Below are positions 3,836 through 49,264 of a stretch of DNA of 57,670 bases, piece by piece. Location: contig JBKQUF010000154.1 in the NCBI GenBank assembly GCA_052140285.1, positions 1 to 57,670 of the forward strand. The letters run 5' to 3'. A program made the position numbers and the translations under genes. The notes below the pieces were generated by a model. That model worked only from the letters and a program-made list of their open reading frames with translations, was not told where the DNA came from and searched no databases. Positions within the stretch are counted from its first letter, which is position 1, and each line of letters opens with the position of its first letter. The DNA comes from Limisphaerales bacterium (GTDB lineage: Bacteria > Verrucomicrobiota > Verrucomicrobiia > Limisphaerales > UBA11358).

Positions 3836-3943
3836 GACTGGGAAGGTGGAAGGGGAAACAACCAACATCACGGCTCTTCCAAGCCTCACCTCACCGACCG
3901 AGAAAAACCTTTTTTACGCAGTGTTTGCCCATTAACTTTCCCC

Positions 3944-5119: not shown

Positions 5120-8044
5120 ATGCCAAGCGAAAAAAGAGCCGACCCCCGGAAGGGGTTCGTCCAACGCCGCCTGCCATGGGTGCTGGCAATCGTGGCATTT
5201 TTTGTTTATTGCCTGACGCTTGAGCATTGGGTGTCCATCTTCAATTCCGCCATCGTCGCGAATCTTTCCGGCTGGGAATGGCGGCCGCAGGTGGTGCAGC
5301 CGCTTGATTTTCTCGTCACCTTTCCGTTCCGATGGCTGCCGGCGGCGGCGATTCCCGCGGCGCTGAATCTGTTCTCGGCCGTCTGCGCGGCGCTGACGCT
5401 GGCCCTGCTGGCGCGGTCAGTGGCGTTGCTGCCACAGGACCGCACCGAACCCCAACGCCGGCGCGAGAAGAGTGATTTCTCTTTTCTAACGACCACTTCC
5501 GCATGGCTGCCTCCCCTTCTGGCGGTGGCGGTCTGCGGGTTGCAGTTTACCTTTTGGGAGCACGCCACCAATTACAGCGGCGAGATGTTCGATCTGCTTC
5601 TCTTCGCCTTTGTCATCTGGTCATTGTTGGAATACCGGCTGGATGAACACGAACCCCGGCTGTTCCTGGCGGCCTTCGTTTATGGCGCGGCAATGGCCGA
5701 GAACTGGGCCATGGTCGGGTTTTTCCCGGTTTACCTCGCGGCCATCATCTGGATTCGAGGCCTGGCCTTTTTCGATTTGCTTTTCATCGTTCGGATGATG
5801 CTCTGCGGTACTGCGGGCTTGTTATTCTTTCTCTTGCTGCCGCTGGCGGCGGTAACTTTCGGCGGGATTCACGTCACGCTCTGGGAGGTTCTGAAGATCA
5901 ACCTAATGGGCGATCATGCAGTCGTAAAAAGCATCATCCGCTGCATTTTCGATCCCGGCCAATACTATCAATACATCGCGCTGGTGTTTGCCTATCTGAT
6001 GCCGGTGCTCGTCATGGCGATACGGTGGAAGGCTTCGTTCGGCGATACCAGTCGTTTCGGCCAGGTCATTACCAGCGCCATTTTACATATCGCCCATGCG
6101 ATATTCCTGGGAGTTTTCATCTGGATGGCGTTTGATCCCCCGTTCAGCCCCCGCACTCTCGGCAGCCCGGAACCGTTGCTGACGTTCTACTATCTGGGCG
6201 CGCTGGCGATTGGCTATTACAGCGGATATTTATTGCTCGTTTGCGGCAAAGAGGAAGTGAGCAGAAAGGGTCGCCCGCCCCTGAACCAACCGTTGAAGTT
6301 TTTGAACAAGCCGACGTTCTTTGGAGTTTACCTGCTGGCCCTGGCCGCCCTGGCGGGACTGGTTCATCAGAATGTGCCGCTGATTCGCGGCGCCAACGAC
6401 AACACCTTGCGCCAGTATGCGAAATTGGTTGAGGAAAAACTTCCGCACACCGGCGGCTTGCTGTTGAGCGACGACCCGGTCCGGCTTTTTCTGGTCCGGT
6501 CCGCCCTGGTCCAGGATGGCCGCGCAAATGAATATGTTCCGCTGGAGACGACGCTCCTGCCGCTGCCGGATTACCACCACTTTTTGCACCGGGAGTTCCC
6601 CCAAAAATGGCACGACTTCGTTCCGCCAACCCTGACCAATTCCATCAGTCCCGTCGGGCTGGTCCAATTGCTGGGGGTCTTGTCCCGGACCAACGATCTC
6701 TATTACTTGAATCCGAGTTTCGGTTACTATTTTGAAAGGTTTTACCTTGAGCCGCACGGGCTGGTTTACCGGATGAAAACCCTGCCGGCGGACACCCTGC
6801 GCCCCCCGCCGCCGGACGCGGGCTTGATTTCTGAAAACCAGGATTTCTGGACGCGCGACGCGGTTCCGGCGATGACCCAGGTCACCAGCACTATCTCGCC
6901 CCCCCCTCCAAACGCCGCTTTGAGCTGGGGTGATTATATCCTGAGTCGCCTCCACATTTCGAGCCAACCCGACCAGGACGCCGCCGTTCGCGCCGGGGTT
7001 TATTATTCACGCAGCCTGAACTTCTGGGCGGTCCAGCTTCAGCGCGCCGGAAAATTGGAATCCGCCGCCACCAATTTTCAAACGGCGCTGTTGCTGAATC
7101 CCGACAATTCCGTGGCCCGGATCAATCTGGATTTTAACCGGCAGCTTCTTTCCCGGGAGCCGGTCACCATTGACCCTTCCCGGGCGAATCCCGATCGCTT
7201 GGGCAAATACCCCACCTTCGTCCAGGCGATGACCGACGGCGGGCCGTTTGACGATCCGGATTTTTGTTTTGTGTACGGAACCGCCCTGGCCCTGCAAAAC
7301 GGGTTGTATCGCCAATCGTTGGCGCAGCTTGAGCGCGTCCGCGAACTGGCCCCTGATTTTTTGCCGGCCCGCCTGACGCTGGCGGGGGATTATCTGATTA
7401 ACCGGCGCCCGGAACTGGCTTTGGACGTTTTGCGCGGGCCGATTGAGGACCCGGAAAAATATGCCGTGGACCAAACCAATGAAATCGAAATTCAAAGCCT
7501 GACGGCGGCCGCTTATTTTCAGGAAACCAACAATGCGCGGGCGATTGAATTGCTGAATACCGAAGTGGCCAGCCACCCGGACGACAACGGCGTGCTGGTG
7601 ACGGCGGCGCGGATTTTTATTGTCCGCGGATTATACCAAAACGCCCTCGGCGTGATTGACCGGCGGCTCAAAACCGACCCCGACAATCCGGCCTGGCTTT
7701 ACAACAAAGGCTATGTCTCCCTTGAATTGAAGAATTATCCGGCCGCCATCGCCGCACTGGATCGCGTCCTCGCAATCCAGACCAACAACGGCGACGCGCT
7801 CTTCAACCGCGCCCTCGCCAATCTCGATAGCGGCCGGCTGGACGCCGCCCGGGCGGACTACCTGCGATTGCAACTGGCCGTGAGCAACGCCCCGGCCATC
7901 ACCTATGGCCTCGGTGAAATTGCCTGGCAAAAAAATGAAACCAACGACGCCGTCCGCTATTACCAACTCTATCTCGCCCGCGCCAATACCAATACGGACG
8001 AGGCCAAAGCCGTGGCCGCGCGGCTAAAAGCATTGAAACCGTAA
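5120..8044 (+). CDS. Polytopic membrane protein, GT-C/DUF2723 (TMEM260-like) N-terminal half plus extracytoplasmic TPR repeats
   Basis: Roughly ten TM segments in the first ~420 aa (LNLFSAVCAALTLALL, FTFWEHAT); C-terminal TPR-like units (AWLYNKG, ALFNRALA, TYGLGEIA); lies with glycosyltransferase genes. Confidence 0.6.
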   Translation: MPSEKRADPRKGFVQRRLPWVLAIVAFFVYCLTLEHWVSIFNSAIVANLSGWEWRPQVVQPLDFLVTFPFRWLPAAAIPAALNLFSAVCAALTLALLARSVALLPQDRTEPQRRREKSDFSFLTTTSAWLPPLLAVAVCGLQFTFWEHATNYSGEMFDLLLFAFVIWSLLEYRLDEHEPRLFLAAFVYGAAMAENWAMVGFFPVYLAAIIWIRGLAFFDLLFIVRMMLCGTAGLLFFLLLPLAAVTFGGIHVTLWEVLKINLMGDHAVVKSIIRCIFDPGQYYQYIALVFAYLMPVLVMAIRWKASFGDTSRFGQVITSAILHIAHAIFLGVFIWMAFDPPFSPRTLGSPEPLLTFYYLGALAIGYYSGYLLLVCGKEEVSRKGRPPLNQPLKFLNKPTFFGVYLLALAALAGLVHQNVPLIRGANDNTLRQYAKLVEEKLPHTGGLLLSDDPVRLFLVRSALVQDGRANEYVPLETTLLPLPDYHHFLHREFPQKWHDFVPPTLTNSISPVGLVQLLGVLSRTNDLYYLNPSFGYYFERFYLEPHGLVYRMKTLPADTLRPPPPDAGLISENQDFWTRDAVPAMTQVTSTISPPPPNAALSWGDYILSRLHISSQPDQDAAVRAGVYYSRSLNFWAVQLQRAGKLESAATNFQTALLLNPDNSVARINLDFNRQLLSREPVTIDPSRANPDRLGKYPTFVQAMTDGGPFDDPDFCFVYGTALALQNGLYRQSLAQLERVRELAPDFLPARLTLAGDYLINRRPELALDVLRGPIEDPEKYAVDQTNEIEIQSLTAAAYFQETNNARAIELLNTEVASHPDDNGVLVTAARIFIVRGLYQNALGVIDRRLKTDPDNPAWLYNKGYVSLELKNYPAAIAALDRVLAIQTNNGDALFNRALANLDSGRLDAARADYLRLQLAVSNAPAITYGLGEIAWQKNETNDAVRYYQLYLARANTNTDEAKAVAARLKALKP

Positions 8045-8092: not shown

Positions 8093-9262
8093 ATGCGCGT
8101 CATTCACGTTATTACGCGGCTGATCGTCGGCGGAGCGCAGGAAAATACCGTCGCCACCGTCCTGGGCTTGCGCGAAAAACCCGGGATGGAAGTTCAACTG
8201 GTCTCCGGCCCGACCGCCGGACCGGAAGGCTCCCTTGAACCTGAATTAAAAAAAATCCCCGGCCTGCTCCAAATTGTCCCCGGGCTGGTCCGGGTGATTC
8301 ATCCGCCGGAGGATTTCCGCGCTTTGCAAAAGCTGGAAAAAATTTTTCGCGAACAAAAGCCGGACGTCGTCCACACCCACAGCGGCAAGGCGGGAATTCT
8401 CGGCCGCCTGGCCGCCCGGCGAGCCGGGGTTCCGATCATTGTTCATACGATCCATGGTCCTTCCTTTGGAAATTTTCAGAATGGCTTGAGCAATTATATC
8501 TTTCGCCTCGCGGAACGCCGGGCCGGACGCCTCACGACGCACTTTGTCGTCGTTGCCGACGCGATGAGGGAACAGTATCTGGCCGCCGGTATCGGCCGGC
8601 CGGAGCAATACACGAAAATCCTTAGCGGCTTCGCTCTGGCCCCATTCCTCGCCGCCCAAAATGATTCCGGGTTCCGAAAACAACTGGGCCTGGAGCCGGA
8701 AGATTTTGTCATCGGCAAAATCGCGCGGTTGTTCAAATTGAAAGGCCACGACGACTTGTTCGCCATCGCCCCGGAACTGGTCCGGCAAAACCCAAAAATC
8801 AAATTTCTCCTCGTGGGAGATGGCGAGTGGCGCGGGCGGTTCGAGGCGCTGGCCCGAAGCAAGGGAGTGGAAAAGCATTTCGTTTTTGCCGGCCTGATTC
8901 CGCCGGACCAGGTCCCGAAATATGTCGGCGTGATGGATGCCCTGGTCCATTTGTCCCTGCGCGAAGGTCTGCCCCGGGCCTTGCCCCAGGCGCTCGCCGC
9001 GGCTAAACCGGTGGTGGCGTATGATTGCGACGGCGCGCGGGAAATTTGTTTCGAGGGCCGGACTGGCTTTTTAGTGCCGGTGGGCGGCTTGCCGCTGTTG
9101 AAAAACCGGTTGCTTCAACTGGCGGGAGACGCGGCATTATGCGAAAAATTCGGCGGCGCCGGCCGTGATTTTGTCCGGGAAAACTTTTCCGTCGAAAAAA
9201 TGGTGGACTCCATTTACCATCTTTACGGGAAACTTGCCGCGGGAAGCGGCATCGCGCCGTGA
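8093..9262 (+). CDS. Glycosyltransferase family 4 (GT-B fold)
   Basis: ITRLIVGGAQ, PDVVHTHSGKAG, KLKGH, EGLPRALPQA. Confidence 0.9.
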   Translation: MRVIHVITRLIVGGAQENTVATVLGLREKPGMEVQLVSGPTAGPEGSLEPELKKIPGLLQIVPGLVRVIHPPEDFRALQKLEKIFREQKPDVVHTHSGKAGILGRLAARRAGVPIIVHTIHGPSFGNFQNGLSNYIFRLAERRAGRLTTHFVVVADAMREQYLAAGIGRPEQYTKILSGFALAPFLAAQNDSGFRKQLGLEPEDFVIGKIARLFKLKGHDDLFAIAPELVRQNPKIKFLLVGDGEWRGRFEALARSKGVEKHFVFAGLIPPDQVPKYVGVMDALVHLSLREGLPRALPQALAAAKPVVAYDCDGAREICFEGRTGFLVPVGGLPLLKNRLLQLAGDAALCEKFGGAGRDFVRENFSVEKMVDSIYHLYGKLAAGSGIAP

Positions 9263-10233
9263 CTTTTCCATTCAACCTTTTCCTGGCGGCTTTTGCCTGC
9301 GCCTTCAGCGCCTCGCTGCTCGCGCTGCCGCTCTGGCGCAAATGGGCGTGGCGCATGAATCTCGTTGACGACCCGGGACAACGGAAAATCCACGACCAGC
9401 CCGTCCCGCTCGCCGGCGGATTCGCCGTGCTGACCGGGATTCTGGTCCCGCTGATCCTCGGCGCCGTGGTCGTCCGTTTTGGAATCGTAAAAATCTCCTC
9501 CCATTCGCTGCTCCTTTACGGATTGGAACGGCGCGGGGTCGAACTGGCGGCGATTGCGGGCGGCGCGATTGCCATCACCGTCATCGGCTGGCTGGACGAC
9601 AAATATGAATTGAAGCCCTTGCCGAAATTCATCGGCCAATTTCTGGTCGCCCTGCTCATCGCCACCGCCTGCAAACGGATCACCCTCTTCGTCCATAACG
9701 AAATGTTCAGCTATGCCATCACCGTGCTCTGGCTGTTGACGGTCATTAACGCCTTCAATTTCATGGACAACATGAACGGGCTGTGCGCGGGTATCGGCGC
9801 GATCGGCGCTTTCTTTTTTGGCCTGATCTCCGGCGCCGACGGCGAATACCTGGTGGCCACCACTGAATTTTTGATCTGCGGCGCGTTGCTGGGCTTTTTG
9901 CCATGGAATTTTCCCAAGGCCCGCGCCTTTCTCGGCGACGCCGGGAGCCATCTGGTGGGATACCTCCTGGCCGTCATGGCCATCCTGCCCCATTTTTATT
10001 CAAGGCAAAATCCGCATCCGCTGGCGGTCCTTTCGCCGTTGCTGGTGCTGGCCATTCCGCTGGCCGACCTGGCGCAGGTGGTCGTCAAACGGACCCTCAA
10101 CGGCAAACCATTCTGGATTGGCGACACCAACCACATTTCCCACTGGCTGGCACGCCACGGATTGAACCGCACCCAGGCGGTGCTGTTGATCTGGCTCGTC
10201 GCGGTGATGATCGGCACGCTCGCCTGCCTCTGA
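9259..10233 (+). CDS. Polyprenyl-phosphate HexNAc-1-phosphate transferase (WecA/TagO, MraY family)
   Basis: DDPGQRKIH..PLAGG, GWLDD, NAFNFMD, FLGDAGS, DTNHISH; GTGA overlap with the GT4 gene. Confidence 0.88.
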   Translation: MTFPFNLFLAAFACAFSASLLALPLWRKWAWRMNLVDDPGQRKIHDQPVPLAGGFAVLTGILVPLILGAVVVRFGIVKISSHSLLLYGLERRGVELAAIAGGAIAITVIGWLDDKYELKPLPKFIGQFLVALLIATACKRITLFVHNEMFSYAITVLWLLTVINAFNFMDNMNGLCAGIGAIGAFFFGLISGADGEYLVATTEFLICGALLGFLPWNFPKARAFLGDAGSHLVGYLLAVMAILPHFYSRQNPHPLAVLSPLLVLAIPLADLAQVVVKRTLNGKPFWIGDTNHISHWLARHGLNRTQAVLLIWLVAVMIGTLACL

Positions 10234-15343: not shown

Positions 15344-16732
15344 ATGAAAACCATTTTGTCATTCGCAGCCTCTTGCCTCGTCGCCTGGAGCCTCTCCGCG
15401 CAAAACGCGGACACCAATACGCCCGCGACCAACCCGCCTTCCACCGCTTCCGCCGCCACCAACGCGCCGGACTGGATTTCGCAGCCATTATCGCTCGTCA
15501 ACGCCTTAAACCTCGCCCTCCAGCAAAACGCCGCCATTCTCGAAGCCCGAAACGACTTGGAAGCCTCCCATGGCATCGTCGTTCAAACCCGCGCGGTGGC
15601 GTTGCCCCAATTGACTGCCGGCGGCCAATACAAGGACACCGACCCCGACGCGGTTGAAAGTTTTTTCGGTTTCAGCCAGCCGCATGAAAACTGGAATGCC
15701 AACATCCAAATCGTCCAGTCCATTTATGAAGGCGGAAAATTGACCGCGGCGTTCCAGGCGGCGGACGCCACCAAACGCCAGGCCGTCGCCCAGTTTGAAA
15801 CCGTCGTCGCCGACGCCCTTCTCAACACCCGGGTCGCCTACTACGATGTCTTGCTTGCCACGCAGCAAATCACCGTTCACGAAGCGTCGGTGAACCTCTT
15901 GCAGAGTGAATTAACCGACCAGCAGAACCGGTACAACGCCGGGACCGTCCCGCATTTCAACGTCCTTCAGGCGGATGTGGCCGTGGCCAACGAACGCCCC
16001 AACCTGATCCAGGCGCGCAATAATTATCGCGTCGCCAAAAACAATCTCTCCAACCTCTTGGGCTATAATCTGCCCCGCGACATTTGGGAGGACATCCCGA
16101 TACAGTTATCCGACTCCCTCGACGACGCGGCGTTTGATGTCAATCTGCCCAATGCCATCCAGCAGGCGCTTTCCAACCGCACGGAATTGGCGGCGCTCCG
16201 GGAGAGCGAGCGGCTGAACAAGCTGAACATCGTGAATGCCTCCTCCGGGTACAAGCCCACCCTGCAATTGTTTGCGGGATACGGGTGGTTCAACGCGCAG
16301 TTCACGCCGCCCGTTACCCTCACCCACGACATCAACGGTTGGAACGCCGGCGCCCAGGTGCAGTGGGACCTTTTCGACGGCCTGTTGACCCGTGGAAAAG
16401 TCGTCCAGGCCAGAGCACTTTACCAGAAATCCCAAACCACCCTCGCCGATGAGTCCCGGCAGATTGAATTGGAAGTCCGCACCGACTATTCCGATTTTAT
16501 GGATGCCAAAGAGATTTTGGATTCGCAACGGACCGTTCAAGCCGAGGCCGAGGAAGCCCTGCGCGAAGCCCGCGCCCGTTCCGAAGCCGGCACCGGCACG
16601 CAATTGGACGTGCTCAACGCCGAAACCGCCCTCACCCAGGCCCGCACCACCGACATCCAGGCACTGCACGATTACGACGTCGCCCGCGCCCGGCTCGAGC
16701 GCGCCATCGGCGAAAACATGACCGCGCAATAA
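15344..16732 (+). CDS. TolC-family outer membrane efflux protein
   Basis: Signal peptide; two OEP repeats (LSLVNALNLALQQN; GTGTQLDVLNAE); alternative start 15335. Confidence 0.9.
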   Translation: MKTILSFAASCLVAWSLSAQNADTNTPATNPPSTASAATNAPDWISQPLSLVNALNLALQQNAAILEARNDLEASHGIVVQTRAVALPQLTAGGQYKDTDPDAVESFFGFSQPHENWNANIQIVQSIYEGGKLTAAFQAADATKRQAVAQFETVVADALLNTRVAYYDVLLATQQITVHEASVNLLQSELTDQQNRYNAGTVPHFNVLQADVAVANERPNLIQARNNYRVAKNNLSNLLGYNLPRDIWEDIPIQLSDSLDDAAFDVNLPNAIQQALSNRTELAALRESERLNKLNIVNASSGYKPTLQLFAGYGWFNAQFTPPVTLTHDINGWNAGAQVQWDLFDGLLTRGKVVQARALYQKSQTTLADESRQIELEVRTDYSDFMDAKEILDSQRTVQAEAEEALREARARSEAGTGTQLDVLNAETALTQARTTDIQALHDYDVARARLERAIGENMTAQ

Positions 16733-23139: not shown

Positions 23140-25341
23140 TCAATACTTTTGTTTGATTCCGGCGCGGTCAGAGTCCCCGCCGGAATTTTTATCAGCGATT
23201 TTCCCGGCCTTCTCGGCCGACTCGGCTTCCTGTTCCTGTTCATTCTTCGAATAGTAATAATATCCGTGATAGTACCCGCTGTAGTAATAATAGCTTTCGT
23301 CCTGCGACATGTTGATGTTATTGAGGACGAGGCCGATGAGGTTGCCGCCGACCTTTTCAATCATCTGCTTGGCGCGGATGTTCATCGGCTGCGGATACCG
23401 GCGATATTGAATGACTTGGACCACCATGTCCATTTCGCTGGCCAGCACCGCGGCGTCGCTTACCCCCATGATGGGCGGAGAATCAAAGAAAACATAATCG
23501 TACCGCTGCTTCAATTCGGTGATCAGGTCCTTCATTTGCGCCGAACCAAGAATATTCATCGAACTGCTGGGCAACTTGCCGCTGGCCATGAGATCAAGGG
23601 TCGGAACACTCGTCCGCTGGACCACTTCCTCAATCGTGTTCTGTTTGAGCAAATAATTCGTCAATCCCACGCTATTGCTCACGCGCAAAAGCTTGTGCAA
23701 CGTCGGACGGCGCAAGTCCGAATCCACCAACAGCACCCGTTGCCCGGTCTGGGCAAACACGGTCGCCAGATTCACCGTCGTGGTCGATTTTCCTTCGCCG
23801 GCGCCGGCGCTCACCACCACAATCGTATTGAGCTTGTCGTCCTTTCGCGAAAACAACAGATTCGTCCGCAATACCCGATAGGCCTCGGCATGCTGGCTTT
23901 CGACGCCCTCATTCAGCAGCACCCCCACATTTTGCGGGATCACACCGAGGACCGGCGACTGCAACGCCCGTTCCACGTCGTCAATTGTCTTGACGCTCGT
24001 GTCCAGATACTCGATGAAGAACGCCAGGCCCACGCCCACAATCAGTCCGATGATAATGCCCAGCAGGATGTTGACCAATTTGTTCGGTTTCGCGGGGTCC
24101 TTGCTCGGCACGGCCGGATTAATGATCGTGACCATCCGCGTCTTGGGGGTCACCAAATCCAGCTTGTCGCTCGCAATTTTCTCGGCGACCAGTGTGTGAA
24201 ATGTCCGCATGTCTTCCAATTTGTGCTTGGCCTCCCAATACGGCTGGCCGCGTGATATTTCAGCCAGGTCGTTCGATTTTGCCGATTCCAATTCGGCGGT
24301 GGTTTCATCAACCGCCGCCTTGGAGGACGCCACCTTGGCCGTCAGGCCGATCAGGCTTCCCGTTACCCGCGCATTGATCTCCTGCTGTAATTCATCTCCG
24401 ATCTTTTGAAGGCTTTGAATGTCCGGAAGGTTGGTTGTATAATACACTTTTTGTGACGCCAACGTTTGCTCGTTGTAGTGCAGTTTGGTCACCAAATCAT
24501 CCAAAATCGCGTCCTGGGGATTGATTGACGGCAGCACATCCGGGAGTTCCGCCGGGTTTGTTTTCGCCACGTCATTCAATTCGTCGAGCGCCACCAACAG
24601 TTGCATGTAATTATGTTCATCCTCGTTCCGCTGGTCCGTGAGGCGCTCGGTCTGCTCCTGGGTGAGCGTCGTAGTGGGTGTCTCGGAATTCGGATCGGTG
24701 TCAATGATGCCCAAATCCTTGCGGAGCTGGTCCACGTTGCTTTGCAGGGCTTCAATATTGGTCTCTTCCTGTTGAAAACTGCCCTCCATGGCCTGCACCT
24801 GCTGCATCGCATTGGTATTATACTCGGCCAAACGGTAATCGTAATAAGCGCCGGCCACGGCGTTGGCCAGCTTTGCCGCTTCATCGGCCTTTTCATCATA
24901 GACCGTGATGTCAATGAGCTTGGTGTTGCGCTCGGCGACCAGGCTCAAACGGCCCTTGAAGATATCCATGGCCTCGTCCTGCGTTAACGGCATCCCGTTG
25001 TTGAGGTCTTTGCTCCAGACATTCAGCAGGTCCAGTTGATCGATGACCCGCCCCAGCACCTGAACCGACTGGATTTTTTGAAACTCCGTCGCGATGAAAT
25101 AGGGATCGTACGGCAGATACGCTTGCTGGGGCATGGACACCGTCACCGGGGCATCGGGATTGATTTCAATGCTGGTCGTGCTGGCATAAAAACGGGGCAG
25201 GATAAACGTGACGATCGTGGCCGTGATGGAAATCAAAAGAAAAACCGAAATGATGACTGTCTTCCGGACGCGGATAATGCGCCAATAATCAAGAAAATGC
25301 AGCGAGTTTTCCTGTTGCGCTTGGTCTTTTGCTGGTTCCAT
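23140..25341 (-). CDS. wzc: Wzc-type polysaccharide co-polymerase / BY tyrosine autokinase
   Basis: Two TM helices around a periplasmic coiled coil; EAYRVLRTN, GEGKS, DSDLRRP, FDSPP; Tyr cluster YYYYSGYYHGYYYY. Confidence 0.92.
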   Translation of the reverse strand: MEPAKDQAQQENSLHFLDYWRIIRVRKTVIISVFLLISITATIVTFILPRFYASTTSIEINPDAPVTVSMPQQAYLPYDPYFIATEFQKIQSVQVLGRVIDQLDLLNVWSKDLNNGMPLTQDEAMDIFKGRLSLVAERNTKLIDITVYDEKADEAAKLANAVAGAYYDYRLAEYNTNAMQQVQAMEGSFQQEETNIEALQSNVDQLRKDLGIIDTDPNSETPTTTLTQEQTERLTDQRNEDEHNYMQLLVALDELNDVAKTNPAELPDVLPSINPQDAILDDLVTKLHYNEQTLASQKVYYTTNLPDIQSLQKIGDELQQEINARVTGSLIGLTAKVASSKAAVDETTAELESAKSNDLAEISRGQPYWEAKHKLEDMRTFHTLVAEKIASDKLDLVTPKTRMVTIINPAVPSKDPAKPNKLVNILLGIIIGLIVGVGLAFFIEYLDTSVKTIDDVERALQSPVLGVIPQNVGVLLNEGVESQHAEAYRVLRTNLLFSRKDDKLNTIVVVSAGAGEGKSTTTVNLATVFAQTGQRVLLVDSDLRRPTLHKLLRVSNSVGLTNYLLKQNTIEEVVQRTSVPTLDLMASGKLPSSSMNILGSAQMKDLITELKQRYDYVFFDSPPIMGVSDAAVLASEMDMVVQVIQYRRYPQPMNIRAKQMIEKVGGNLIGLVLNNINMSQDESYYYYSGYYHGYYYYSKNEQEQEAESAEKAGKIADKNSGGDSDRAGIKQKY

Positions 25342-25431: not shown

Positions 25432-26706
25432 TTAGTAAGTAGCCGTCACGCCAAGATATATGCGATTTCGATTGTAATCCTGGTTCAATACGGACGCAGT
25501 TTTGTACCAGTCGAAGTTGTAACCAATTTCCGAGGAAAAATGCACATTGAAATTATACGTCAAATTGACGCCAAAAGTGGCGAAATTCGCGTCCTGATCA
25601 TTAATTCCTCCACCGTGATAAATCGAATACTGATAATCGGCGGTCAGTGAACCAACGATTTTCGGAGTCAACGCATCGCTGATCTGCCCAAACACCACAG
25701 TGCTTTGCTGGTCCTCCACCAGTTGGGTGCTGCTGGAGCCGACGGAGGCCGTGTCCGTGGCATTCCGCGTCTCATTGACGCCCAGTTGAATGTAACTGCC
25801 GGGCAGGTAGGTATAAGTCAACGAAGCATCGCCGTACGGAGCCAAGGCAGCCTTCTCAGCAGAATCACCGTAATAGCTCGTATATTGCACGCCCGCATGA
25901 ATCGCCCCGCTCAGATTTTCCAAAAATTGATGAGTCAACCCGGCAAAACCATATTCCGTGCGATTATCACGACTGGCGGAATCATAGACAACGTTATTCA
26001 GTTCTGCAATCGGCTCACCGCCGGTATAAACCACCTGGCCATATTGATAAGTGATGGAGGCAACGGTTTCCTCATCCACCGCCCATTGGAAGGCAATCGA
26101 CGCCAGATTTTCATCCCGATCCAGCAAGCCGGTCAAGCTCGGATCGCTGACACTGCCCCCGTTGTTATCGTACGTATAATAGGTATTCTCGTACTTGAAT
26201 TTGGTGCTGAATTGGCTGGTCCAATCGGTCGTGAGCGAAATCGTGCCATCATTGGCCAGGTTGTTTCCTTCAATGCGCTCTGGCGTGGCCGTCGCGGTTG
26301 TCAACTGCGGTTCCTGGTACACACTCACCACGTCTTCAAAACGGGCTTCCCAGCGCGGATTGAAGGCATGATCCAGCCACAGATCAAATTCGTGCGATTG
26401 GTCGATCGGGCGCTGTCCATCCTGCTCGCGGGTTTGATAATAATACAGCCCGTAAATGTAGCGCACGCCGATCTCGGTCTGGGCAAACGGCGCGTTTAAG
26501 CTGAAACTCGGAGAAGCCTCAAAACCATAACTGCCTGTTTTCTTCGACGCCGTAAGATAGTTGTCGTCGTAAAATCCCCTCAAAGTTCCTGAGAGGGTCC
26601 AGATTTTCGAGCTGTCGGTTGCGGTGATGTCGGGAGCATATGCCGCATGAACAGCGGCGGCACCGGCGGCAGCCAATCCTACAGAGACAATAATTTTCTT
26701 CATCAT
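25432..26706 (-). CDS. Outer-membrane beta-barrel associated with polysaccharide export
   Basis: Signal peptide; YDDN motif; alternating beta strands; C-terminal YNRNRIYLGVTATY; upstream of wzc/wza. Confidence 0.8.
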   Translation of the reverse strand: MMKKIIVSVGLAAAGAAAVHAAYAPDITATDSSKIWTLSGTLRGFYDDNYLTASKKTGSYGFEASPSFSLNAPFAQTEIGVRYIYGLYYYQTREQDGQRPIDQSHEFDLWLDHAFNPRWEARFEDVVSVYQEPQLTTATATPERIEGNNLANDGTISLTTDWTSQFSTKFKYENTYYTYDNNGGSVSDPSLTGLLDRDENLASIAFQWAVDEETVASITYQYGQVVYTGGEPIAELNNVVYDSASRDNRTEYGFAGLTHQFLENLSGAIHAGVQYTSYYGDSAEKAALAPYGDASLTYTYLPGSYIQLGVNETRNATDTASVGSSSTQLVEDQQSTVVFGQISDALTPKIVGSLTADYQYSIYHGGGINDQDANFATFGVNLTYNFNVHFSSEIGYNFDWYKTASVLNQDYNRNRIYLGVTATY

Positions 26707-26849
26707 ACTTACCCCGCGTTTCTTTCTATAAATGACGTTTACTGTTTTTTCCGGTTTAAAAGTTTGCACATCCAAGCATGCTGACTTTTGATTCAGGCCA
26801 ACTTATCAAAAATGCAAACACCAAGTCAAAGCCTTTTTTTAAAAAAATT

Positions 26850-38314: not shown

Positions 38315-38467
38315 TTGCGCTGAAAGATTATCATACTTCCGCCGCTATCGTTCATCCTTGTCTCTTTACGGTGAAAACCAAACTTGATTAATCCGTATTT
38401 CGCAGTTTTCTTTGAACAAAATTCACTGGTGACAGTCGGCTATTTCGGTAGCATGAATGTCCTTTCG

Positions 38468-41400
38468 ATGAAAAAGCTGGTGTTAAAATTCATTTTATCC
38501 GCGATGGTGCTGGCCGCCGGGCCGGCCCTCGCCGGTGACACAAACTTTGTTGGCGCGGAATGGAGTCCCGTTGATCTCCAACCGGTCCTCGCCGCGGCGG
38601 CGCAAATCACGCCCGCGCAATATCCCAATTGCGATTCGGCGATCGTCGAGGAAAAAAGCGTGCGCGATTATGCCCCGGACGGCACCGGCGAGTGCCAGGA
38701 CGAAACTTTCACCAAAGTCCTCACCGAAAAAGGCAAGCGCGACAATCGCGAATTTTCCATGTCCTTGATGCTGCCTTATTTTACCGTTTCGGTGCCAAAA
38801 CTGGAAATCATCAAGCCGGATGGCACCATCGTGCCGGTGGACGTCGCCGCCAATTCCAAGGAGACCATCGACGAAAGCCAGATGTCCGAGAATATTTACG
38901 ACCCGAACATGCGCATCTTCACGGTGAACGTGCCGCAGTTGGACGTCGGCGACATCGTCCACGTCGTCGCGCGTCAGTTGACTCAACGTTCCATCATGCC
39001 GGCGGAATTTGACGATGAAAATATTCTCGAAGGTTCCAGCTCCATCCGGCACTGGTCGTACGAAGTTTTTGCGCCCACGAACCTGCCCCTGGTCAGCCTC
39101 GGTTTGCGCGACCAGGTCCCCGGCACCGTTACCTCCACCATTCAGACCAATGGCGCCACCGTGGATTATCATTGGGAGATCAATAATGTCCCCCGCATGT
39201 TCGACGAGCCGAACATGCCGCCCTACGATGAAGTATTGCAACGGCTTTTCGTGAGCACCGTGCCCACCTGGCAGGACGTCTCCAAATGGTATTGGAACCT
39301 GAGCAAGCCGCACCTCGACGCCTACACGCCGGAGATGGAACAGGAGGTTGGAAAATTGATCGCGGGGAGCACCAACGATTTGGATAAAATCAAAGCGCTC
39401 TTTTACTACGTCTCGCGAAACATCGAGTACATGGGGGTCACAACGGAAACCAACCGTCCCGGCTTCGAGCCGCACGACGTCTGCATCACGTTCGAGAATA
39501 AATACGGCGTCTGCCGCGACAAGGCGGGGTTGCTCGTGGAGATGTTGCGGTTAGGGGGCTTCCAGGCCTATCCGGTGCTCATCAATATCGGCGCCAAGCG
39601 TGACCAGCAGGTGCCTCAACCGGACTTCAATCACGTCATCGTTGGTGTCGAGCTGACTCCGGGCCATTATACTTTGATGGACCCCACGGATGAGCACACC
39701 CGCGAGTTGTTGCCCGCGCCGGATTGCAACCGCAGTTACCTCGTTTGCAAGCCGGAAGGTGAAACCCTTCTCATCAGTCCCGTGCCTCCTGCTGATAGAC
39801 ACATGTTATTGGTGAAAACCACGGGCACCCTGGACGCCGACGGCACCCTCTCCGCCACCGCTGAATTTTCTTTTGACGGGGTTAACGATGACGCCTATCG
39901 CAATGCTTTTTCCCAAATGCGCCCGGATGAGATTAAACAATTTTTCGAAGGGCGACTCAAGGAAGCCATTCCTGATTTCAAATTGGTTTCCCTCAAGCTC
40001 ACTCCCGAAAATATGATGGACATCACCGTTCCGTTGCGGGCGGAGTTGACCTACACCGCCAGCGGCCTTACCGCCAACGGCGGGGACAAATCCATCGTCA
40101 GCCTGCCATGGATTGCCAAAGATCTGGGAGTGGCTAACCGCGTGCTGATTGATGTCGTGGGCCTGCAAAAACGGAAATATCCGCTCGAGACCGAAGTGAC
40201 CTGCGGCATCCGCGAAGAAATGTCACTGAAATTGACCGGCCGGTTCTCGACGCCGTTGGACGTCCCCGAATTTGCCAGCGTGAACGATGACAGTATTGCC
40301 TACGGTGAAAACATTTCCGTGACGAACGGCACGTTGAGCGGTTCGCGTGAGTTTGTCTTGAAGACCGTCGAGTTTTATCCCGATGAATACCTGCGCCTCA
40401 AGCAGGCGCTCAAAGATATGGACCATGACATGCGCAAAAATCTCATCATGTCGCTCAGTTCCAGTGTTCCGGAAAAGCTGGTGGCCGCGAATGCATCGCC
40501 GGAATCGTTGGGGGATTCGGACGCCGAAATCCTTTACAGCCACGAATCGCTTGAGATTAAAGACGCGCACACCGCCGTCTATCACGTCAAATATTCCAAA
40601 CGCATCCTGACCTACAACGGCAAGATCACCGAATCCGAGGTGAAGATCAGTTACAACCCGGCCTGCTCGGACGCAAAGATTATTCACGCCACAGTGATCT
40701 CCTCGGATGGAACCCGTCACGAAATTTCCGCGGCTGAAATCAACGCCATGGACGACGCCTGGAACCCCGGCGCCAAACGTTACACCGGTGGTAAAGTACT
40801 GGTTGCCAGCCTGCCCGGCATGGACGTCGGTTCGGTGATCGAAGTCGAATACGAAATCACCATGCACGACCTGCCGTACTTGGCGGATTTTGAGTCATTC
40901 CAATTTCCCGAGACTCTGGACCAGAAATCGTTCACCGTGACTGCGCCGGCGGGACTTAAATTCAGTAGTTTTGTGTCCGGCGCGCCTGGAACGGTCAACC
41001 AAAGCAACAAGACCTCAAATGGCATGATTTCTTACGAATGGCAGGCGACGAACATTGAGGCGTTGCCCTCGGAACAACAATTGCCTCCCACGTGGACGTA
41101 TGATTCAGGCGTGGAATATTTCGCCGGAAATATTTCAGATTATTGGAAGGCGCTGAACGATGCCATGCTGGGGCACGCCCAAAATGGCACCCATGCCGCC
41201 GCGCTCGCCCGCCAGTTGACCGCTTCCGCCAAAACCAAATTGGATGCTGTCAAAGCCATCCGCGATTTCATCGCCCAAAACATCCGGAATGGCGGCCCCT
41301 CCTTTACCGAATTGCCGTTGAGCGAATTGTCCGATGCCGATACGACACTCGCCGATGGTTACGGCCACGCCGCCGATCGCGCCATTCTCTTTTATGCCAT

Positions 41401-42292
41401 GCTCACGGCCGCCGGTTTCCATCCGGAGATCGTCGTCGCGTCGGGGCTGCCTCCCGTGACCGGCATCAACCAGGTCGCCCGTTCATTTCCCTTGCCGGAT
41501 GATTTTCAAATCCCGCTGGTCAGGATTTCCGTGGAGGGCGACGATTATTATTTGAATGATACCGATCAGTATTCGCAGTTGGGCACCACCGGCTCCAACG
41601 GCAAGCTCGCGATTGCGCTGGCCACTCAAAAATTGCAGACGATTCATGCCGCCAAAAATTGCGCGGACAAGACCGAGACGGATTACGCCGTCACGCTCTC
41701 GCCGGACGGCCGGGCCATGATCAAGGTCTCCAAATATTTTTACGGCCAGGATTACAATGCCGCGCACAAGATGTTTGCGGAATTGCCGCCCGAGGAGCGA
41801 AATCATTATTTCCAGGAGGCGGTTTCCCGCGTGGCGCAGGGCGCCCAAGCCGTCGGCGACTTGACCACCCGCTTTGATGCCTATCCCGGCTTGGAGGAGT
41901 TTATCGTTGAACTGGACAATTACGGCGTGTTGGGCGGGAACTATCTTTATTTCAACCTGCCGTTTGCATTTTCATTTTTCAACATCGCTTCCGACCAGCG
42001 TTCGTTGCCGCTTTTCATCGCGGACAATAATGAAAACATCCTCCGCGCCGAAATTGGCTTTCCGCCAGGCTACCGCCCGACCAGCATCCTACCCAAAAGC
42101 GAAACCTTCACCGCTCCGGGCGGCTCCCAAGTCCGCATCACGCGGACCGTGGCGGACGGAAAATGTGTGGTGACCGACGATTTCACCGCCGCTCCGGCCG
42201 TCATTAGCGCGCAAAATTATTCGAAGCTGCTGGACGTCCAATCCGCCCTGGGCGAAAAATCGGAGAAAACCTTTTTGCTGGAGCGGGAATAA
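38468..42292 (+). CDS. Exported protein with two tandem DUF3857/transglutaminase-like modules
   Basis: Signal peptide MKKLV...ALA; QLDVGDIV and GMDVGSVIE repeats; triad motifs GVCRDKA, FNHVI, LMDPT in module 1. Confidence 0.82.
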   Translation: MKKLVLKFILSAMVLAAGPALAGDTNFVGAEWSPVDLQPVLAAAAQITPAQYPNCDSAIVEEKSVRDYAPDGTGECQDETFTKVLTEKGKRDNREFSMSLMLPYFTVSVPKLEIIKPDGTIVPVDVAANSKETIDESQMSENIYDPNMRIFTVNVPQLDVGDIVHVVARQLTQRSIMPAEFDDENILEGSSSIRHWSYEVFAPTNLPLVSLGLRDQVPGTVTSTIQTNGATVDYHWEINNVPRMFDEPNMPPYDEVLQRLFVSTVPTWQDVSKWYWNLSKPHLDAYTPEMEQEVGKLIAGSTNDLDKIKALFYYVSRNIEYMGVTTETNRPGFEPHDVCITFENKYGVCRDKAGLLVEMLRLGGFQAYPVLINIGAKRDQQVPQPDFNHVIVGVELTPGHYTLMDPTDEHTRELLPAPDCNRSYLVCKPEGETLLISPVPPADRHMLLVKTTGTLDADGTLSATAEFSFDGVNDDAYRNAFSQMRPDEIKQFFEGRLKEAIPDFKLVSLKLTPENMMDITVPLRAELTYTASGLTANGGDKSIVSLPWIAKDLGVANRVLIDVVGLQKRKYPLETEVTCGIREEMSLKLTGRFSTPLDVPEFASVNDDSIAYGENISVTNGTLSGSREFVLKTVEFYPDEYLRLKQALKDMDHDMRKNLIMSLSSSVPEKLVAANASPESLGDSDAEILYSHESLEIKDAHTAVYHVKYSKRILTYNGKITESEVKISYNPACSDAKIIHATVISSDGTRHEISAAEINAMDDAWNPGAKRYTGGKVLVASLPGMDVGSVIEVEYEITMHDLPYLADFESFQFPETLDQKSFTVTAPAGLKFSSFVSGAPGTVNQSNKTSNGMISYEWQATNIEALPSEQQLPPTWTYDSGVEYFAGNISDYWKALNDAMLGHAQNGTHAAALARQLTASAKTKLDAVKAIRDFIAQNIRNGGPSFTELPLSELSDADTTLADGYGHAADRAILFYAMLTAAGFHPEIVVASGLPPVTGINQVARSFPLPDDFQIPLVRISVEGDDYYLNDTDQYSQLGTTGSNGKLAIALATQKLQTIHAAKNCADKTETDYAVTLSPDGRAMIKVSKYFYGQDYNAAHKMFAELPPEERNHYFQEAVSRVAQGAQAVGDLTTRFDAYPGLEEFIVELDNYGVLGGNYLYFNLPFAFSFFNIASDQRSLPLFIADNNENILRAEIGFPPGYRPTSILPKSETFTAPGGSQVRITRTVADGKCVVTDDFTAAPAVISAQNYSKLLDVQSALGEKSEKTFLLERE

Positions 42293-46246: not shown

Positions 46247-49200
46247 TCAGAAAAAATCTTCCAGGCTGCGGATGGGATGCAAGGGCAGGAGCAGGAGCCG
46301 GGGCAAAACATAAACCGGCTGGTCCTTGGGATTTTCCAGGTTGCCGGTGACTTTATATTCGAAAATTTTCGTCACCGGAAACAGCACGGTGCTGATGACC
46401 GGCCCCACCGCCGGCACGTTATGGAGCAGTTGCGCCGTGACCCGCGCGTTCACGTTCTGCTGCAAATCCACCGTGCCGGCATATTGCAGGCGCGTTGAAC
46501 CGGTGTTGATTTGCAAATTGTCCGAATAAATCACGCCATTGGCCATGGTAAAATCGCCGCTGGCTTCAGTTGCCCGGCTGTTGCCGAGATCTGGCGCGAC
46601 CTGATTTAATGCCGTGGAAAAGAAACCAAAAACCGGAATGTCCCACAGCAAACCATCGCGCAATTGCGCCTGGCCGTAACCGTTCACCGAATGCCAGTCC
46701 TCGGTGCTGGCGTGTGTCACCACAATCTTTCCGCTCAAGGCGCCTTTGAGATGATTCGTCGGCGACGACAGGTCGGAGGCCAGCCCGTAAAGGTCCACGT
46801 TGGTGATATTCATCCAACACTCATAATCCGCCCCCTCGTGCGGCACGCGGAAATCAAAATCGGCGTAACCGGTTCCGTTCCCGCCGTAAAGCTGGGCTGC
46901 AACATTGGTCAGAATCAAGTTTTGACCGAGCCAAAGGATTGTTCCAGTCAGGAGGGAGGCGCGAAACTTGTGGGTTTCGAATGGAGCGCCGCGTACGACA
47001 TCAAAACGCACATTTATGTCGTCGCGCCCTTCCACATCTCCCAACGGCGCGCACCCGTTTACCAGCACGGTTGGCGCCTCCAAATACCGATAGGGCGCCA
47101 TAATCTCAGCGGTTTTCGGCCCAATCGCAGCCGCGACCGCCTGTGGTTCGGCGGTGCTGTATCCGTTTTTGAACCAAATCAACCGGGTGTTGAAATTCAG
47201 CGTGATTTCATCAGCCGTCATCGTTTCCGGCCCGCGCCACAATCGGGAATTGAAAAATTTCAGGACCCGGTTCGTATAGGAAAAATCGCCGGCGACATTG
47301 TCCACGTGCTGCTCCCGGACGGCAAAATTGGTGCAGGCCAGATGCCCGGACGCGGCCAGACTGTCCGTATCACTCAAGCGGCCGGAGAAGTGCGCGGTAA
47401 AGTAAACCGGCTCGGCGGCTGAAAGATGACTAAAAACACGTCCGGCATCCTTGGGCGGGAGGAAGGACCGCAAAGTCTCCGGGTCAAACGTCCCGCGAAT
47501 CTGCCAATCATAGCCCTGGGTGGCGTCATTCACTGTGCCATTGGCTTCAACCTGCGTTTTGAATTGTGAGAAGCTCATCGAAGGGAACCGCCAAAGCCGA
47601 TTGGAATAGGAAAATTCGGCGGACACGGAGTCAATCGGCGTGTCTTGGATTGTCCCATTCGTGTAGAAAAAATCCCCGGCGACGTTGTCCATGTGCTGCT
47701 CCCGGACGGCAAAATTGGTGCAGGCCAAATGCCCGGACGCGGCCAGGCTGTCCAAATCATTCAAGCGCCCCGAGACCCGCGCTGTAAAATGAACCGGCTC
47801 GGTGGCTGAAAAATGGCTAAAAATGCGCCCGGTATCTTTTGGCAGCAGGAAAGACCGCAAAGTCTCCGGGTCAAACGCCCCGCAAATCTGCCAATCATAG
47901 TTCTTGGTGGCGTCATTCACGGTGCCGTTGGCTTCCACCTGTGTTTTGAATTGCGTGAGGCTCATGGAAGAGACCCGCCAAAGCCGATTGGAATAGGAAA
48001 ATTGGGCGGCCACGGAATCAATCGGCACGTCCTGAATCGCCCCATTCGTGATGGCCAGCTCGCCGTCCAATCGTATCGTCGGCAGCACTGCCGCGCTCCA
48101 ATTGGCGTCGTGATTCGTCCATGCGGGAAGAAGCATTGAGCCGCCCACCCGCAGATGCGGCGGCTCCGTCCAGGTAAACTCCGCGAATCGTGCGCGCGCT
48201 TCTTTCGCGAGAAAGGGATTCACCACATGAAGATCAAAGTCCGATGAATTGGTGAAGGCCAGCGCGCGGCTGGCCACATTCAATTCCGCATCCGCGTTCA
48301 ACCTTCCGCCGTCGAGTTTCGCGGCCAGGTTCGTTACGGCCAATATCGGCGCATTCCAATACCCCGCGACCGAGATGGCGTGGGCGTTTAAAAACTGGCC
48401 GTTCACCCGCTGCAACTTCATCGTCCAGAACAGCCGGTAAGGATGGAGATTTGTCCAAAAATCCTCCGACGCATCGATATTGGTGGAGGCGTTGGCCGGC
48501 GCTGTCAGCCGGGCGGCCAGTTGAAACTGATCGGCATCGCCCCACGCCGTCCGCACGAATGGCGCCGCGGCATTCAGCCGCACGTAAAAGGAATGGATGT
48601 TGAGGGCGTCTCCGTAAACATTCAGGGACAACAAGGCGGGTCCGCCGAAATGAACTTTTTGAAGCGCCTCGGAGAATTGTTGCAATTGCTCGCGCGCCTC
48701 CTGGGCGTTGCCGGTTCTTTTTCCACGGAATATTTCCCAATTCGGGATTTCGCGCCCGTTGGCCACCTCGCCCGACAAGCTCAATTGCACGCCGTCGAAA
48801 TCCGCCTTGAAGTCGTTCAGCGACCACACGTCATTGGTCGGCAGTTCCAAATCGGCCTGGATGTTTGTGAGCGCCAGTGCGTTCGTATCGGACAACGGCA
48901 AAATAAAACTGCCGTTGTGAACGACCAGGCCGTCCAGTTGCAATTGCCGGTGCCAGGCGGCGCGGTAATCGATCTCCAGGGCCACCTGGCGCGCCGAGAC
49001 CACGGGACTTTCCGGTGTCTGGGGCTGGCCAATATGAACATTGTCCGCGACCAACCCGCGGGTAAAGCTCAAATGTATCCGCGTGAAATGCAGCTCCAGA
49101 CCGTGCTGATGGAGCGATTCCACCAGCCCGTTGGTGAAAAATGAGGGCAGGCCGACCCGGTCGAACCAGATGACGGCACAGAGCCCCGCCAGCAGCGCAA

Positions 49201-49264
49201 ACAGCGCGGCGCGGCGAAGCCAGCGGATGCACATGCGGCATTTGCGCCAGAAGTCCCTTTGCAT
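46247..49264 (-). CDS. AsmA-like (bridge-like lipid transfer) envelope protein with a 129-aa internal tandem duplication
   Basis: N-terminal TM anchor; beta-rich repeats; AsmA-like C-terminus (LYGGNGTG, GLLWDIPVFG, KIFEYKVTGNLENPK). Confidence 0.8.
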   Translation of the reverse strand: MQRDFWRKCRMCIRWLRRAALFALLAGLCAVIWFDRVGLPSFFTNGLVESLHQHGLELHFTRIHLSFTRGLVADNVHIGQPQTPESPVVSARQVALEIDYRAAWHRQLQLDGLVVHNGSFILPLSDTNALALTNIQADLELPTNDVWSLNDFKADFDGVQLSLSGEVANGREIPNWEIFRGKRTGNAQEAREQLQQFSEALQKVHFGGPALLSLNVYGDALNIHSFYVRLNAAAPFVRTAWGDADQFQLAARLTAPANASTNIDASEDFWTNLHPYRLFWTMKLQRVNGQFLNAHAISVAGYWNAPILAVTNLAAKLDGGRLNADAELNVASRALAFTNSSDFDLHVVNPFLAKEARARFAEFTWTEPPHLRVGGSMLLPAWTNHDANWSAAVLPTIRLDGELAITNGAIQDVPIDSVAAQFSYSNRLWRVSSMSLTQFKTQVEANGTVNDATKNYDWQICGAFDPETLRSFLLPKDTGRIFSHFSATEPVHFTARVSGRLNDLDSLAASGHLACTNFAVREQHMDNVAGDFFYTNGTIQDTPIDSVSAEFSYSNRLWRFPSMSFSQFKTQVEANGTVNDATQGYDWQIRGTFDPETLRSFLPPKDAGRVFSHLSAAEPVYFTAHFSGRLSDTDSLAASGHLACTNFAVREQHVDNVAGDFSYTNRVLKFFNSRLWRGPETMTADEITLNFNTRLIWFKNGYSTAEPQAVAAAIGPKTAEIMAPYRYLEAPTVLVNGCAPLGDVEGRDDINVRFDVVRGAPFETHKFRASLLTGTILWLGQNLILTNVAAQLYGGNGTGYADFDFRVPHEGADYECWMNITNVDLYGLASDLSSPTNHLKGALSGKIVVTHASTEDWHSVNGYGQAQLRDGLLWDIPVFGFFSTALNQVAPDLGNSRATEASGDFTMANGVIYSDNLQINTGSTRLQYAGTVDLQQNVNARVTAQLLHNVPAVGPVISTVLFPVTKIFEYKVTGNLENPKDQPVYVLPRLLLLPLHPIRSLEDFF
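47271..48050 (-). repeat. In-frame tandem duplication, period 387 bp
   Basis: CCAAAGCCGATTGGAATAGGAAAATT at 47591 and 47978; GCTCCCGGACGGCAAAATTGGTGCAGGCCA at 47311 and 47698. Confidence 0.95.

Follow-up and report, generated by a model that had tools for sequence, protein, structure and literature searches.

The 57,670-nucleotide contig JBKQUF010000154.1 of a Limisphaerales bacterium (Verrucomicrobiota; assembly GCA_052140285.1), hereafter the window, encodes an AsmA/YhdP-like protein in which threonine directly followed by asparagine (TN) occurs 17 times, although 4.3 occurrences are expected from its composition, and the reverse dipeptide (NT) only twice. A sequence-only reading of the window had counted the same 17 and 2 by hand and had proposed that (T/S)N marks sites modified after export by a general protein modification system, which raises the question of whether the excess extends beyond this protein and what it may stand for. 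The analysis of the whole genome showed that TN occurs about twice as often as expected only in the parts of proteins that leave the cytoplasm, in this genome and in some of its relatives.

TN excess in the exported proteins of the genome

The source genome (G000) comprises 302 contigs with a total of 3.94 Mb (56% G+C, 89% complete), and the window is its contig C154. Genes were called with an in-frame hexamer model of our own that was trained iteratively (3153 genes, 85% of the DNA), and the proteins were assigned by our own heuristic classifier, which considers signal peptides, lipoboxes and hydrophobic or transmembrane segments, to an exported (665 proteins), a cytoplasmic (1659), a multi-pass membrane (419) or an ambiguous (410) class. 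This classifier is crude, and several plainly cytoplasmic enzymes of the window were placed in the exported class. Expected dipeptide counts were calculated protein by protein, each from its own composition.

The exported class contained 1572 TN against 832 expected, an observed/expected ratio (O/E) of 1.89 that ranks first among the 400 dipeptides, and its TN:NT ratio of 2.45 (642 NT) was the strongest order asymmetry of any dipeptide. In 200 shuffles within proteins the TN count averaged 837 (standard deviation 26.5) and never exceeded 906, which places the observed count at a z value of 27.7. TN outnumbered NT in 302 exported proteins and was outnumbered in 100, with 263 ties, and the excess was present in all four length classes, in lipoproteins (2.03) as well as in other signal-peptide proteins (1.87), and along the entire mature chain, with a slight rise over its first 80 residues. 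Inflation by paralogs or repeat families was ruled out, because the 363 exported proteins without a paralog in the genome gave the same ratio (725 against 383 expected, 1.90) and removal of the 30 largest contributors left 1045 TN against 649. The suggestion that the order asymmetry argues against simple composition is thus in agreement with an O/E that stays at about 1.9, far from 1, after correction for T and N content. Nevertheless, NT fell short of expectation (0.77-0.79, z about -7) both in exported and in cytoplasmic proteins, and therefore part of the TN:NT asymmetry reflects a general NT deficit unrelated to export. The second dipeptide of the exported class by over-representation ratio was CH (1.81), probably because of the CxxCH haem-binding motif of c-type cytochromes.

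The cytoplasmic class, in turn, contained 1231 TN against 1011 expected (1.22), and this ratio fell to 0.99 when its 30 top contributors, whose N-termini resemble those of mis-started secreted proteins, were set aside. A test within proteins that avoids the classifier was carried out on 195 multi-pass proteins oriented by the positive-inside rule. Their predicted periplasmic loops contained 156 TN against 90.6 expected (1.72; 77 NT) and their predicted cytoplasmic loops 53 against 53.9 (0.98; 44 NT). Equal enrichment in cytoplasmic domains, which would have spoken against the proposal, was therefore not what these proteins and loops showed, with ratios of about 1.0. Since misclassification dilutes the contrast between compartments, the true contrast probably exceeds the measured one.

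The excess depends on direct adjacency. Thr and Asn separated by one to four residues (T-x-N through T-xxxx-N) occurred in exported proteins at 0.95-1.01 of expectation (0.97 for T-x-N), which together with the NT depletion ruled out a locally T- and N-rich composition. Of the (T/S)N motif proposed earlier, the TN half stood; SN was depleted (0.82), so that Ser is no substitute for Thr and the motif should read TN. All four codon pairs of ACC or ACG with AAC or AAT contributed, roughly in proportion to codon usage, and the constraint therefore acts on the protein and not on a DNA word, which ruled out a DNA motif or codon-pair bias. Taken together, these results indicated that the TN signal is order-dependent and lies at the protein level, and that composition, DNA or codon bias and paralogy cannot explain it.

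As for its surroundings, Lys, Arg and His were depleted near TN (HTN 0.17; K and R 0.23-0.47 at several flanking positions), Pro was enriched 1.9-fold two residues past the Asn, and small or hydrophobic residues were mildly favoured beside the dipeptide. Linker-like low-complexity segments, exemplified by the N-terminal tail of a TolC-like protein of the window and by a protein of 280 aa (14 TN, no NT), showed a higher TN density (11.4 versus 6.8 per 1000 aa elsewhere) but a lower O/E (1.67 versus 2.05). Two repeat proteins of the genome carry TN at recurring places: a 1008-aa leucine-rich-repeat protein (G000:C131:5132-8158; 39 TN, 4 NT) has it at a constant position within the repeat, and a 497-aa protein (G000:C9:10852-12345; 23 TN, 1 NT) has it in recurring GGTNG and GFTNLYSF motifs.

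An artefact, whether of composition, codon-pair or DNA bias, gene calling, localisation heuristics or a few repeat families, is an extremely improbable source of the signal. The home-made gene calls and classes do have visible errors and the cytoplasmic class as a whole is mildly raised, but misclassification can only weaken the compartment contrast, the expectation was set for each protein separately, the highest shuffle remained far below the observed count, NT is depleted where TN is enriched, the major codon pairs and the paralog-free proteins all share the excess, and the same pipeline found none in Escherichia coli or in eight other genomes.

Distribution of the excess and the AsmA-like protein

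For comparison, samples of 38-260 kb were drawn from 15 further genomes of various degrees of relatedness to the source genome, and one of 150 kb from E. coli K-12, and all were analyzed with the identical pipeline (Table 1); those of G015, G017 and G018 (38-60 kb) and of G019 (129 kb) do not allow a classification because of their small size. Five genomes, counting the source genome, were TN-positive and belong to its own genus and to two other families of the order, and the 12 other samples showed no clear excess. The TN density of exported proteins was bimodal, with 5.2-7.2 per 1000 aa in the five positive genomes (G000, G003, G011, G016 and G014) and 1.2-2.9 in the eight others. Among these 13 scored genomes, TN was the exported dipeptide with the highest z in the same five; in the remaining eight it was outside the top five by z, and no substitute dipeptide was found. 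The cytoplasmic classes of the relatives had TN ratios of 0.6-1.6, and for NT in exported proteins the samples gave O/E values between 0.54 and 2.21. In 50 exported ortholog pairs, the source-genome proteins contained 61 TN and 22 NT, with 35 TN expected, and their partners from six TN-negative genomes 30 and 30, with 29 expected.

Table 1. TN and NT in the exported proteins of the comparison samples
Sample	Relation to source genome	TN observed/expected (ratio)	NT	Further data
G003	same genus	88/41 (2.14)	28	
G011	same genus	92/42 (2.19)	28	
G016	same order, other family	106/62 (1.70)	50	
G014	same order, other family	101/55 (1.83)	56	
G019	same order, other family	15/11		
G015	same order, other family	19/15		
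G017	same order, other family	12/4		
G018	same order, other family	21/11	24	
G020	same order, other family	49/34 (1.42)	32	TN:NT 1.53
G089	same order, other family	26/20 (1.32)	24	TN:NT 1.08
G013	same order, other family	36/35 (1.04)	29	40 exported proteins, 236 kb
G044	same class, other order	16/23		
G021	same class, other order	19/20		
G026	same phylum, other class	34/33		
G043	same phylum, other class	28/17	23	
E. coli K-12	unrelated control, 150 kb	18/25	20	

The TN signal is therefore lineage-specific. The same excess in unrelated lineages, which had been named as a ground for abandoning the proposal, was absent from the samples of other orders and classes and from E. coli, and because the excess is not universal it does not reflect a general structural turn motif.

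The AsmA-like protein in which TN was first noticed contains 67 Thr and 64 Asn in its 1005 residues and begins with a hydrophobic segment. Besides its TN it has two SN and three NS, and TD occurs once against 4.1 expected. It matches the Pfam family YhdP (PF13116) at the threshold (46.9 bits, cut-off 46) and through its C-terminal 80 residues alone; AsmA (PF05170, 23.3 bits, cut-off 29.8) and DUF748 (18, cut-off 50) scored below threshold. An internal tandem duplication of about 130 residues (approximately 406-535 and 535-664, window positions 47300-48050) explains two of the 17 TN, and several orthologs of the same genus, about 100 residues shorter (898-924 aa), lack the alignment columns of the duplication.

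The orthologs were rich in TN throughout the order. Leaving out G014 here and in the site alignment, TN numbered 12-18 in seven of seven orthologs of the same genus and 7-18 in seven of seven readable orthologs at the order level, including that of G013 (8 against 1.9 expected), whose proteome has no general excess. In a library of 1.84 billion proteins, TN exceeded NT in all 150 best representative homologs, with pooled counts of 1952 TN (407 expected) and 275 NT. An alignment of 15 orthologs of 25-53% identity showed five TN sites common to 12-13 of them, and 29 sites that were singletons. In contrast, the trait was absent from three homologs from outside the order (1-2 TN each), and E. coli AsmA, YhdP and TamB, members of the same lipid-transport family, have 1, 3 and 1 TN against 2.1-4.7 expected, which ruled out a TN motif universal to the AsmA family. 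Judged by these ortholog counts, the TN richness is a trait of the whole ortholog group of this order and of it only. Its TN could be conserved modification sites or a structural motif, and the data fit both equally. Because the excess of this protein is an ortholog-group trait with conserved sites, it is by itself weak evidence for the general claim.

The AsmA-like protein also bears on the alternative that TN is a lineage-specific structural, folding or non-covalent recognition motif, be it a turn, a helix N-cap, a strand edge or a determinant bound by a periplasmic chaperone, sorting or quality-control system, without any covalent modification. The five sites kept among such divergent orthologs agree with this explanation, and so do the uniform TN richness of the 150 homologs, its persistence in the orthologs of G013 and G020, whose proteomes show no clear excess, and the fixed repeat position of TN in the leucine-rich-repeat protein. 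Likewise, in the predicted model of the candidate transferase described below, six of nine TN lie in coil, two at the start of a helix (its first two residues) and one within a helix, several of them in turns between helices of its repeat domain. A purely structural preference should be universal, however, and the excess is missing from the other orders and classes that were sampled and from E. coli, homologs of the TN-rich proteins included; moreover, most sites are unconserved and fall at variable columns, and a two-residue polar motif is not known to us from any chaperone or sorting system. We consider this explanation somewhat unlikely.

In agreement with such variability, Thr preceded a conserved Asn in 22 of 404 columns in the source genome and in 24 in its TN-negative orthologs, which ruled out a recruitment of Thr in front of conserved Asn residues; the extra TN therefore lie at variable positions. 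Within the genus, TN of exported proteins was retained in 24 of 43 and in 18 of 45 cases, and NT in 4 of 14 and in 6 of 22, and the Thr of TN was about as conserved as other Thr. As judged from these alignments, the density of TN is maintained while single sites turn over.

A candidate transferase and its neighbours

The explanation of this pattern that we favour, although with slightly less than even confidence, is that TN serves as a sequon, the acceptor motif at which proteins are modified after export, most probably by O-glycosylation of the Thr. TN would be under positive selection in segments exported across the inner membrane because T-N would form the core acceptor motif of a covalent modification, and the Thr would be glycosylated by a membrane transferase of the GT-C type that acts on extended chains during their emergence on the periplasmic side. 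The best candidate for such an enzyme in the window is a TMEM260-like protein with a GT-C, a Rossmann-like and a tetratricopeptide repeat (TPR) domain, and the products of the two adjacent genes, a WecA-like and a GT4 enzyme, may build the lipid-linked donor (Table 2).

The GT-C/TPR protein matched the profile PF11028 at 34 bits (cut-off 24.2) in a six-frame search, over profile positions 21-171 of 179; an hmmscan of the protein returned TPR families alone, and about half of its listed homologs carry a precomputed PF11028 assignment. It contains nine TN, all beyond the first membrane helices, and four NT. An AlphaFold2 model built with 33 homologs (pLDDT 79.3) predicts about 11 membrane helices in residues 18-425, a small alpha/beta, Rossmann-like domain in residues 429-560 and a TPR domain in residues 567-972, so that the protein would have a GT-C multi-pass fold, a Rossmann-like domain and a TPR domain in this order. 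In Foldseek, a model of the N-terminal 620 residues (pLDDT 66.6) found GT-C enzymes at ranks 1-9, 11 and 13-15 with weak E values (2e-3 to 0.36), namely STT3, ALG12, ALG9, GPI mannosyltransferase I, Pmt1, AftB and Pmt4, and GPI transamidase chains at ranks 10 and 12. The full-length model in Foldseek and a sequence search of the PDB returned TPR proteins alone. An invariant Asp, D451, follows the first strand of the alpha/beta domain and might correspond to D441 of TMEM260.

The WecA-like protein scored 117 bits with PF00953 and 117 bits, below the cut-off, with TIGR02380 (wecA). The trio of GT-C/TPR, GT4 and WecA-like genes is conserved in two close relatives (L156 and L157), in G016 and in G103; the WecA-like gene adjoins the GT-C/TPR gene in G099, and in G013 the GT4 gene does so while the WecA-like gene lies on another contig. 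In G095 neither neighbour is beside the GT-C/TPR gene, and no close WecA-like ortholog was found in this genome. The N-terminal domain of the GT-C/TPR protein was detected in 59 of the 61 genomes scored for the order (source genome included) and in none of five complete genomes outside it. The two order genomes without a match, G020 and G089, have a weak proteome excess or none (1.42 and 1.32).

Other candidates of the source genome were considered as well. Profile searches gave four matches to Wzy_C, eleven to PMT_2 (ten above the cut-off) and two to PF11028, and none to STT3 (PF02516) in this 89% complete assembly, although the same search matched controls in four archaea. The second PF11028 protein (G000:C103:2467-6480; 72 bits) is longer, with 1337 aa and about 16 hydrophobic segments, and its orthologs (about 100 bits, in frames of 950-1810 aa) occur in 10 of the 11 genomes of the order that were searched and also, outside the order, in the TN-negative G025 and G043. 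This paralog was rejected as the TN enzyme, since it does not track TN status and occurs in TN-negative genomes. G020 (2.6 Mb) and G089 (3.0 Mb) also lack a match for two of the Wzy_C proteins, which suggests that reduced lineages lost envelope glycoconjugate genes together. Among 14 control genomes, PF11028 was matched in Bacteroides thetaiotaomicron alone.

The candidate resembles, as far as the model and the accessible part of the published account indicate, human TMEM260 (PF11028), in which a GT-C membrane core (about 11 helices) is likewise followed by a small alpha/beta domain and then by TPRs. According to the same part of that account, the TPR of TMEM260 clasps an extended acceptor, and the enzyme prefers Thr and reads its sequon on an extended chain. 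The two differ in that the sequon of TMEM260, Px6Px3Px2GGx3T in IPT domains, is long and domain-specific and here it would be T-N, and in that the TPR region spans about 400 aa in the window protein versus about 140 in TMEM260. At the level of sequence, the 33-sequence alignment showed no invariant acidic residue that might be the counterpart of D52 of TMEM260, which lies in the first extracytoplasmic loop.

Among bacterial systems, the closest parallel is the general O-glycosylation of Bacteroidota, in which, as described in the accessible part of the literature, a short motif is likewise limited to the non-cytoplasmic proteins of one bacterial lineage. TN is restricted in the same way to non-cytoplasmic proteins and segments. 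The motifs themselves differ, being D-(S/T)-(A/I/L/M/T/V) in Bacteroidota and T-N here, with Thr only and with Asp just 1.16-fold enriched at position -1; the phylum is another one, and the excess described here is a statistical one that is patchy within one order. In the part of a 2025 review that was accessible, the Bacteroidota system is the sole motif-directed bacterial O-glycosylation known, with its transferase undiscovered, and the accessible part of another 2025 review tabulates no TN-like sequon and leaves Verrucomicrobia unmentioned. A literature search that covered titles and the openings of abstracts found neither a TN sequon nor protein glycosylation in Verrucomicrobiota or Planctomycetota.

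The PglL and PglB systems of Neisseria, Burkholderia and Campylobacter are alike in transferring a glycan en bloc in the periplasm, from an undecaprenyl-PP-linked donor to many exported proteins, and in starting with a WecA/PglC-type enzyme. The sequon of PglB is D/E-X-N-X-S/T. Here STT3 was unmatched in the source genome, and the two Wzy_C proteins tested among the four could not be linked to TN status. For PglL, the accessible review table gives no defined sequon.

This comparison brings in the possibility that the post-export modification of TN has another chemistry and that a different enzyme from the GT-C/TPR protein carries it out; the group might, for instance, be attached to the side chain of Asn, with the Thr at -1 as determinant, or might be no glycan but a group such as phosphoethanolamine. 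The statistics would be the same as for O-glycosylation of Thr, the Asn is as strictly required as the Thr (as the T-x-N value and the single TD of the AsmA-like protein illustrate), and the Wzy_C and PMT_2 matches of the genome offer other enzymes. We regard this possibility as quite unlikely, given that no STT3/PglB homolog was found in the source genome at its present completeness, that there is no acidic preference two residues before the Asn (D 1.16, E 0.86) and a weak Ser/Thr preference two residues after it (T 1.38), and that nothing indicates a particular alternative enzyme.

Weighing TN as a possible acceptor motif

The following observations weigh against TN being a sequon for Thr O-glycosylation by the GT-C/TPR protein. 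The localisation classes are our own heuristics, and the samples of the relatives are of 38-260 kb and come from genomes that are not independent, so that Table 1 is to be read as a map and not as a test. Nine exported proteins with E. coli orthologs contain 7 TN and 9 NT against 10 expected, that is, no excess. TN pairs within 10 residues of each other number 165 versus 202.5 +/- 11.5 in random placement and are thus less clustered, unlike the clusters of mucin-type glycosylation. Many TN have hydrophobic flanks and several in the AsmA-like protein are positionally conserved, which fits a structural role too.

Further points concern the enzyme. G013 has the candidate gene with an adjacent GT4 gene, yet no proteome-wide excess (36 TN against 35 expected), and G020 has no match for the candidate gene, yet its AsmA-like ortholog contains 16 TN against 4.4 expected. 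Two Wzy_C (PglL/WaaL-like) proteins share the distribution of the candidate, being found in 9 of 11 genomes of the order and having no match in G020 and G089; both are present in the TN-negative G013, and they differ from the GT-C/TPR gene only outside the order. Because this pair shares the pattern within the order, presence or absence cannot single out the GT-C/TPR gene, and the choice of an enzyme by this approach failed. GT-C enzymes usually bear a key Asp in the first periplasmic loop, and in the 33-sequence alignment neither Asp nor Glu is invariant or nearly so at any column of residues 33-74, the first periplasmic loop. The PF11028 match of the candidate lacks profile positions 1-20. 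Finally, TMEM260 uses Dol-P-Man as donor, and a WecA-type partner would imply a donor linked to undecaprenyl-PP.

Of the proposal that (T/S)N marks post-export modification sites, the real, non-compositional, compartment- and lineage-specific signal was confirmed, Ser was excluded and the AsmA-like protein proved a poor witness. We infer that TN may be modified at all, that the modification would be a glycan on Thr and that the GT-C/TPR gene could be responsible. As the TN enzyme, this gene is a lead that we rate as unlikely to be right. The complete scheme, in which this clade would run a second motif-directed bacterial glycosylation after that of Bacteroidota, with a TN sequon, a TMEM260-type enzyme reading unfolded chains in the periplasm and a short lipid-linked glycan built by the WecA-like and GT4 proteins, and in which selection for the glycan would have roughly tripled the exported TN density, is likewise an improbable whole, about as doubtful as the enzyme assignment.

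If TN were a sequon, it would be just the second motif-directed general O-glycosylation in bacteria, would give a function to bacterial TMEM260-like proteins, now annotated merely as 'tetratricopeptide repeat protein', and, in view of the PF11028 match of B. thetaiotaomicron, might hint at the missing Bacteroidota transferase. It would also mean that proteome statistics by themselves suffice to discover a modification system, through dipeptide order asymmetry across compartments and related genomes. Even without any modification, a compartment- and lineage-specific dipeptide enrichment with a z of about 28 is unusual in protein evolution and needs explaining.

The other counts that had been made by hand in the window could be repeated with one exception (Table 2). 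The TN and NT numbers of the DUF3857 and GT-C/TPR proteins were reproduced, and so were those of GltB (4 and 7), the position of all three TN of the TolC-like protein in its low-complexity N-terminal tail after the signal peptide, and the lack of TN in the open reading frames (ORFs) named GlyRS, MiaB, LeuB, PolX and RlmD, of which RlmD is the sole name checked at the family level. The four TN ascribed to the periplasmic loop of Wzc correspond to residues 176-303 of the ORF assigned to it, between its two hydrophobic segments. Two TN each were found in the HlyD-like and pilin-like proteins as stated; for Wza the same count depends on which ORF was intended, which is ambiguous, since the 447-aa ORF at 25432-26775 has none and the 206-aa lipoprotein at 22487-23107 has two.

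Table 2. Location of the proteins of the window discussed in the text
Protein	Positions	Strand	Remarks
GT-C/TPR protein: candidate transferase, TMEM260-like GT-C / alpha/beta / TPR	5120..8044	+	974 aa, PF11028 match
Cytoplasmic GT4-family glycosyltransferase (Glycos_transf_1)	8093..9262	+	directly downstream of GT-C/TPR gene
WecA/MraY-family polyprenyl-phosphate N-acetylhexosamine (HexNAc)-1-phosphate transferase	9259..10233	+	overlaps end of GT4 gene
TolC-like outer-membrane protein (label of the sequence-only reading)	15344..16732	+	TN at residues 24, 29, 39
Protein with two transmembrane segments, taken as the Wzc of that reading	23140..25341	-	TN 6, NT 4
Exported DUF3857 / transglutaminase-like protein (Pfam)	38384..42292	+	TN 7 vs 4.2 expected, NT 0
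AsmA/YhdP-like protein, predicted to span the periplasm	46247..49264	-	1005 aa, N-terminal signal/anchor, internal duplication

The window also encodes, at 2168-3889 on the minus strand, a protein whose N-terminus is twin-arginine-like (MNRRRFLATAALA...) and which matches a GH79 C-terminal domain.

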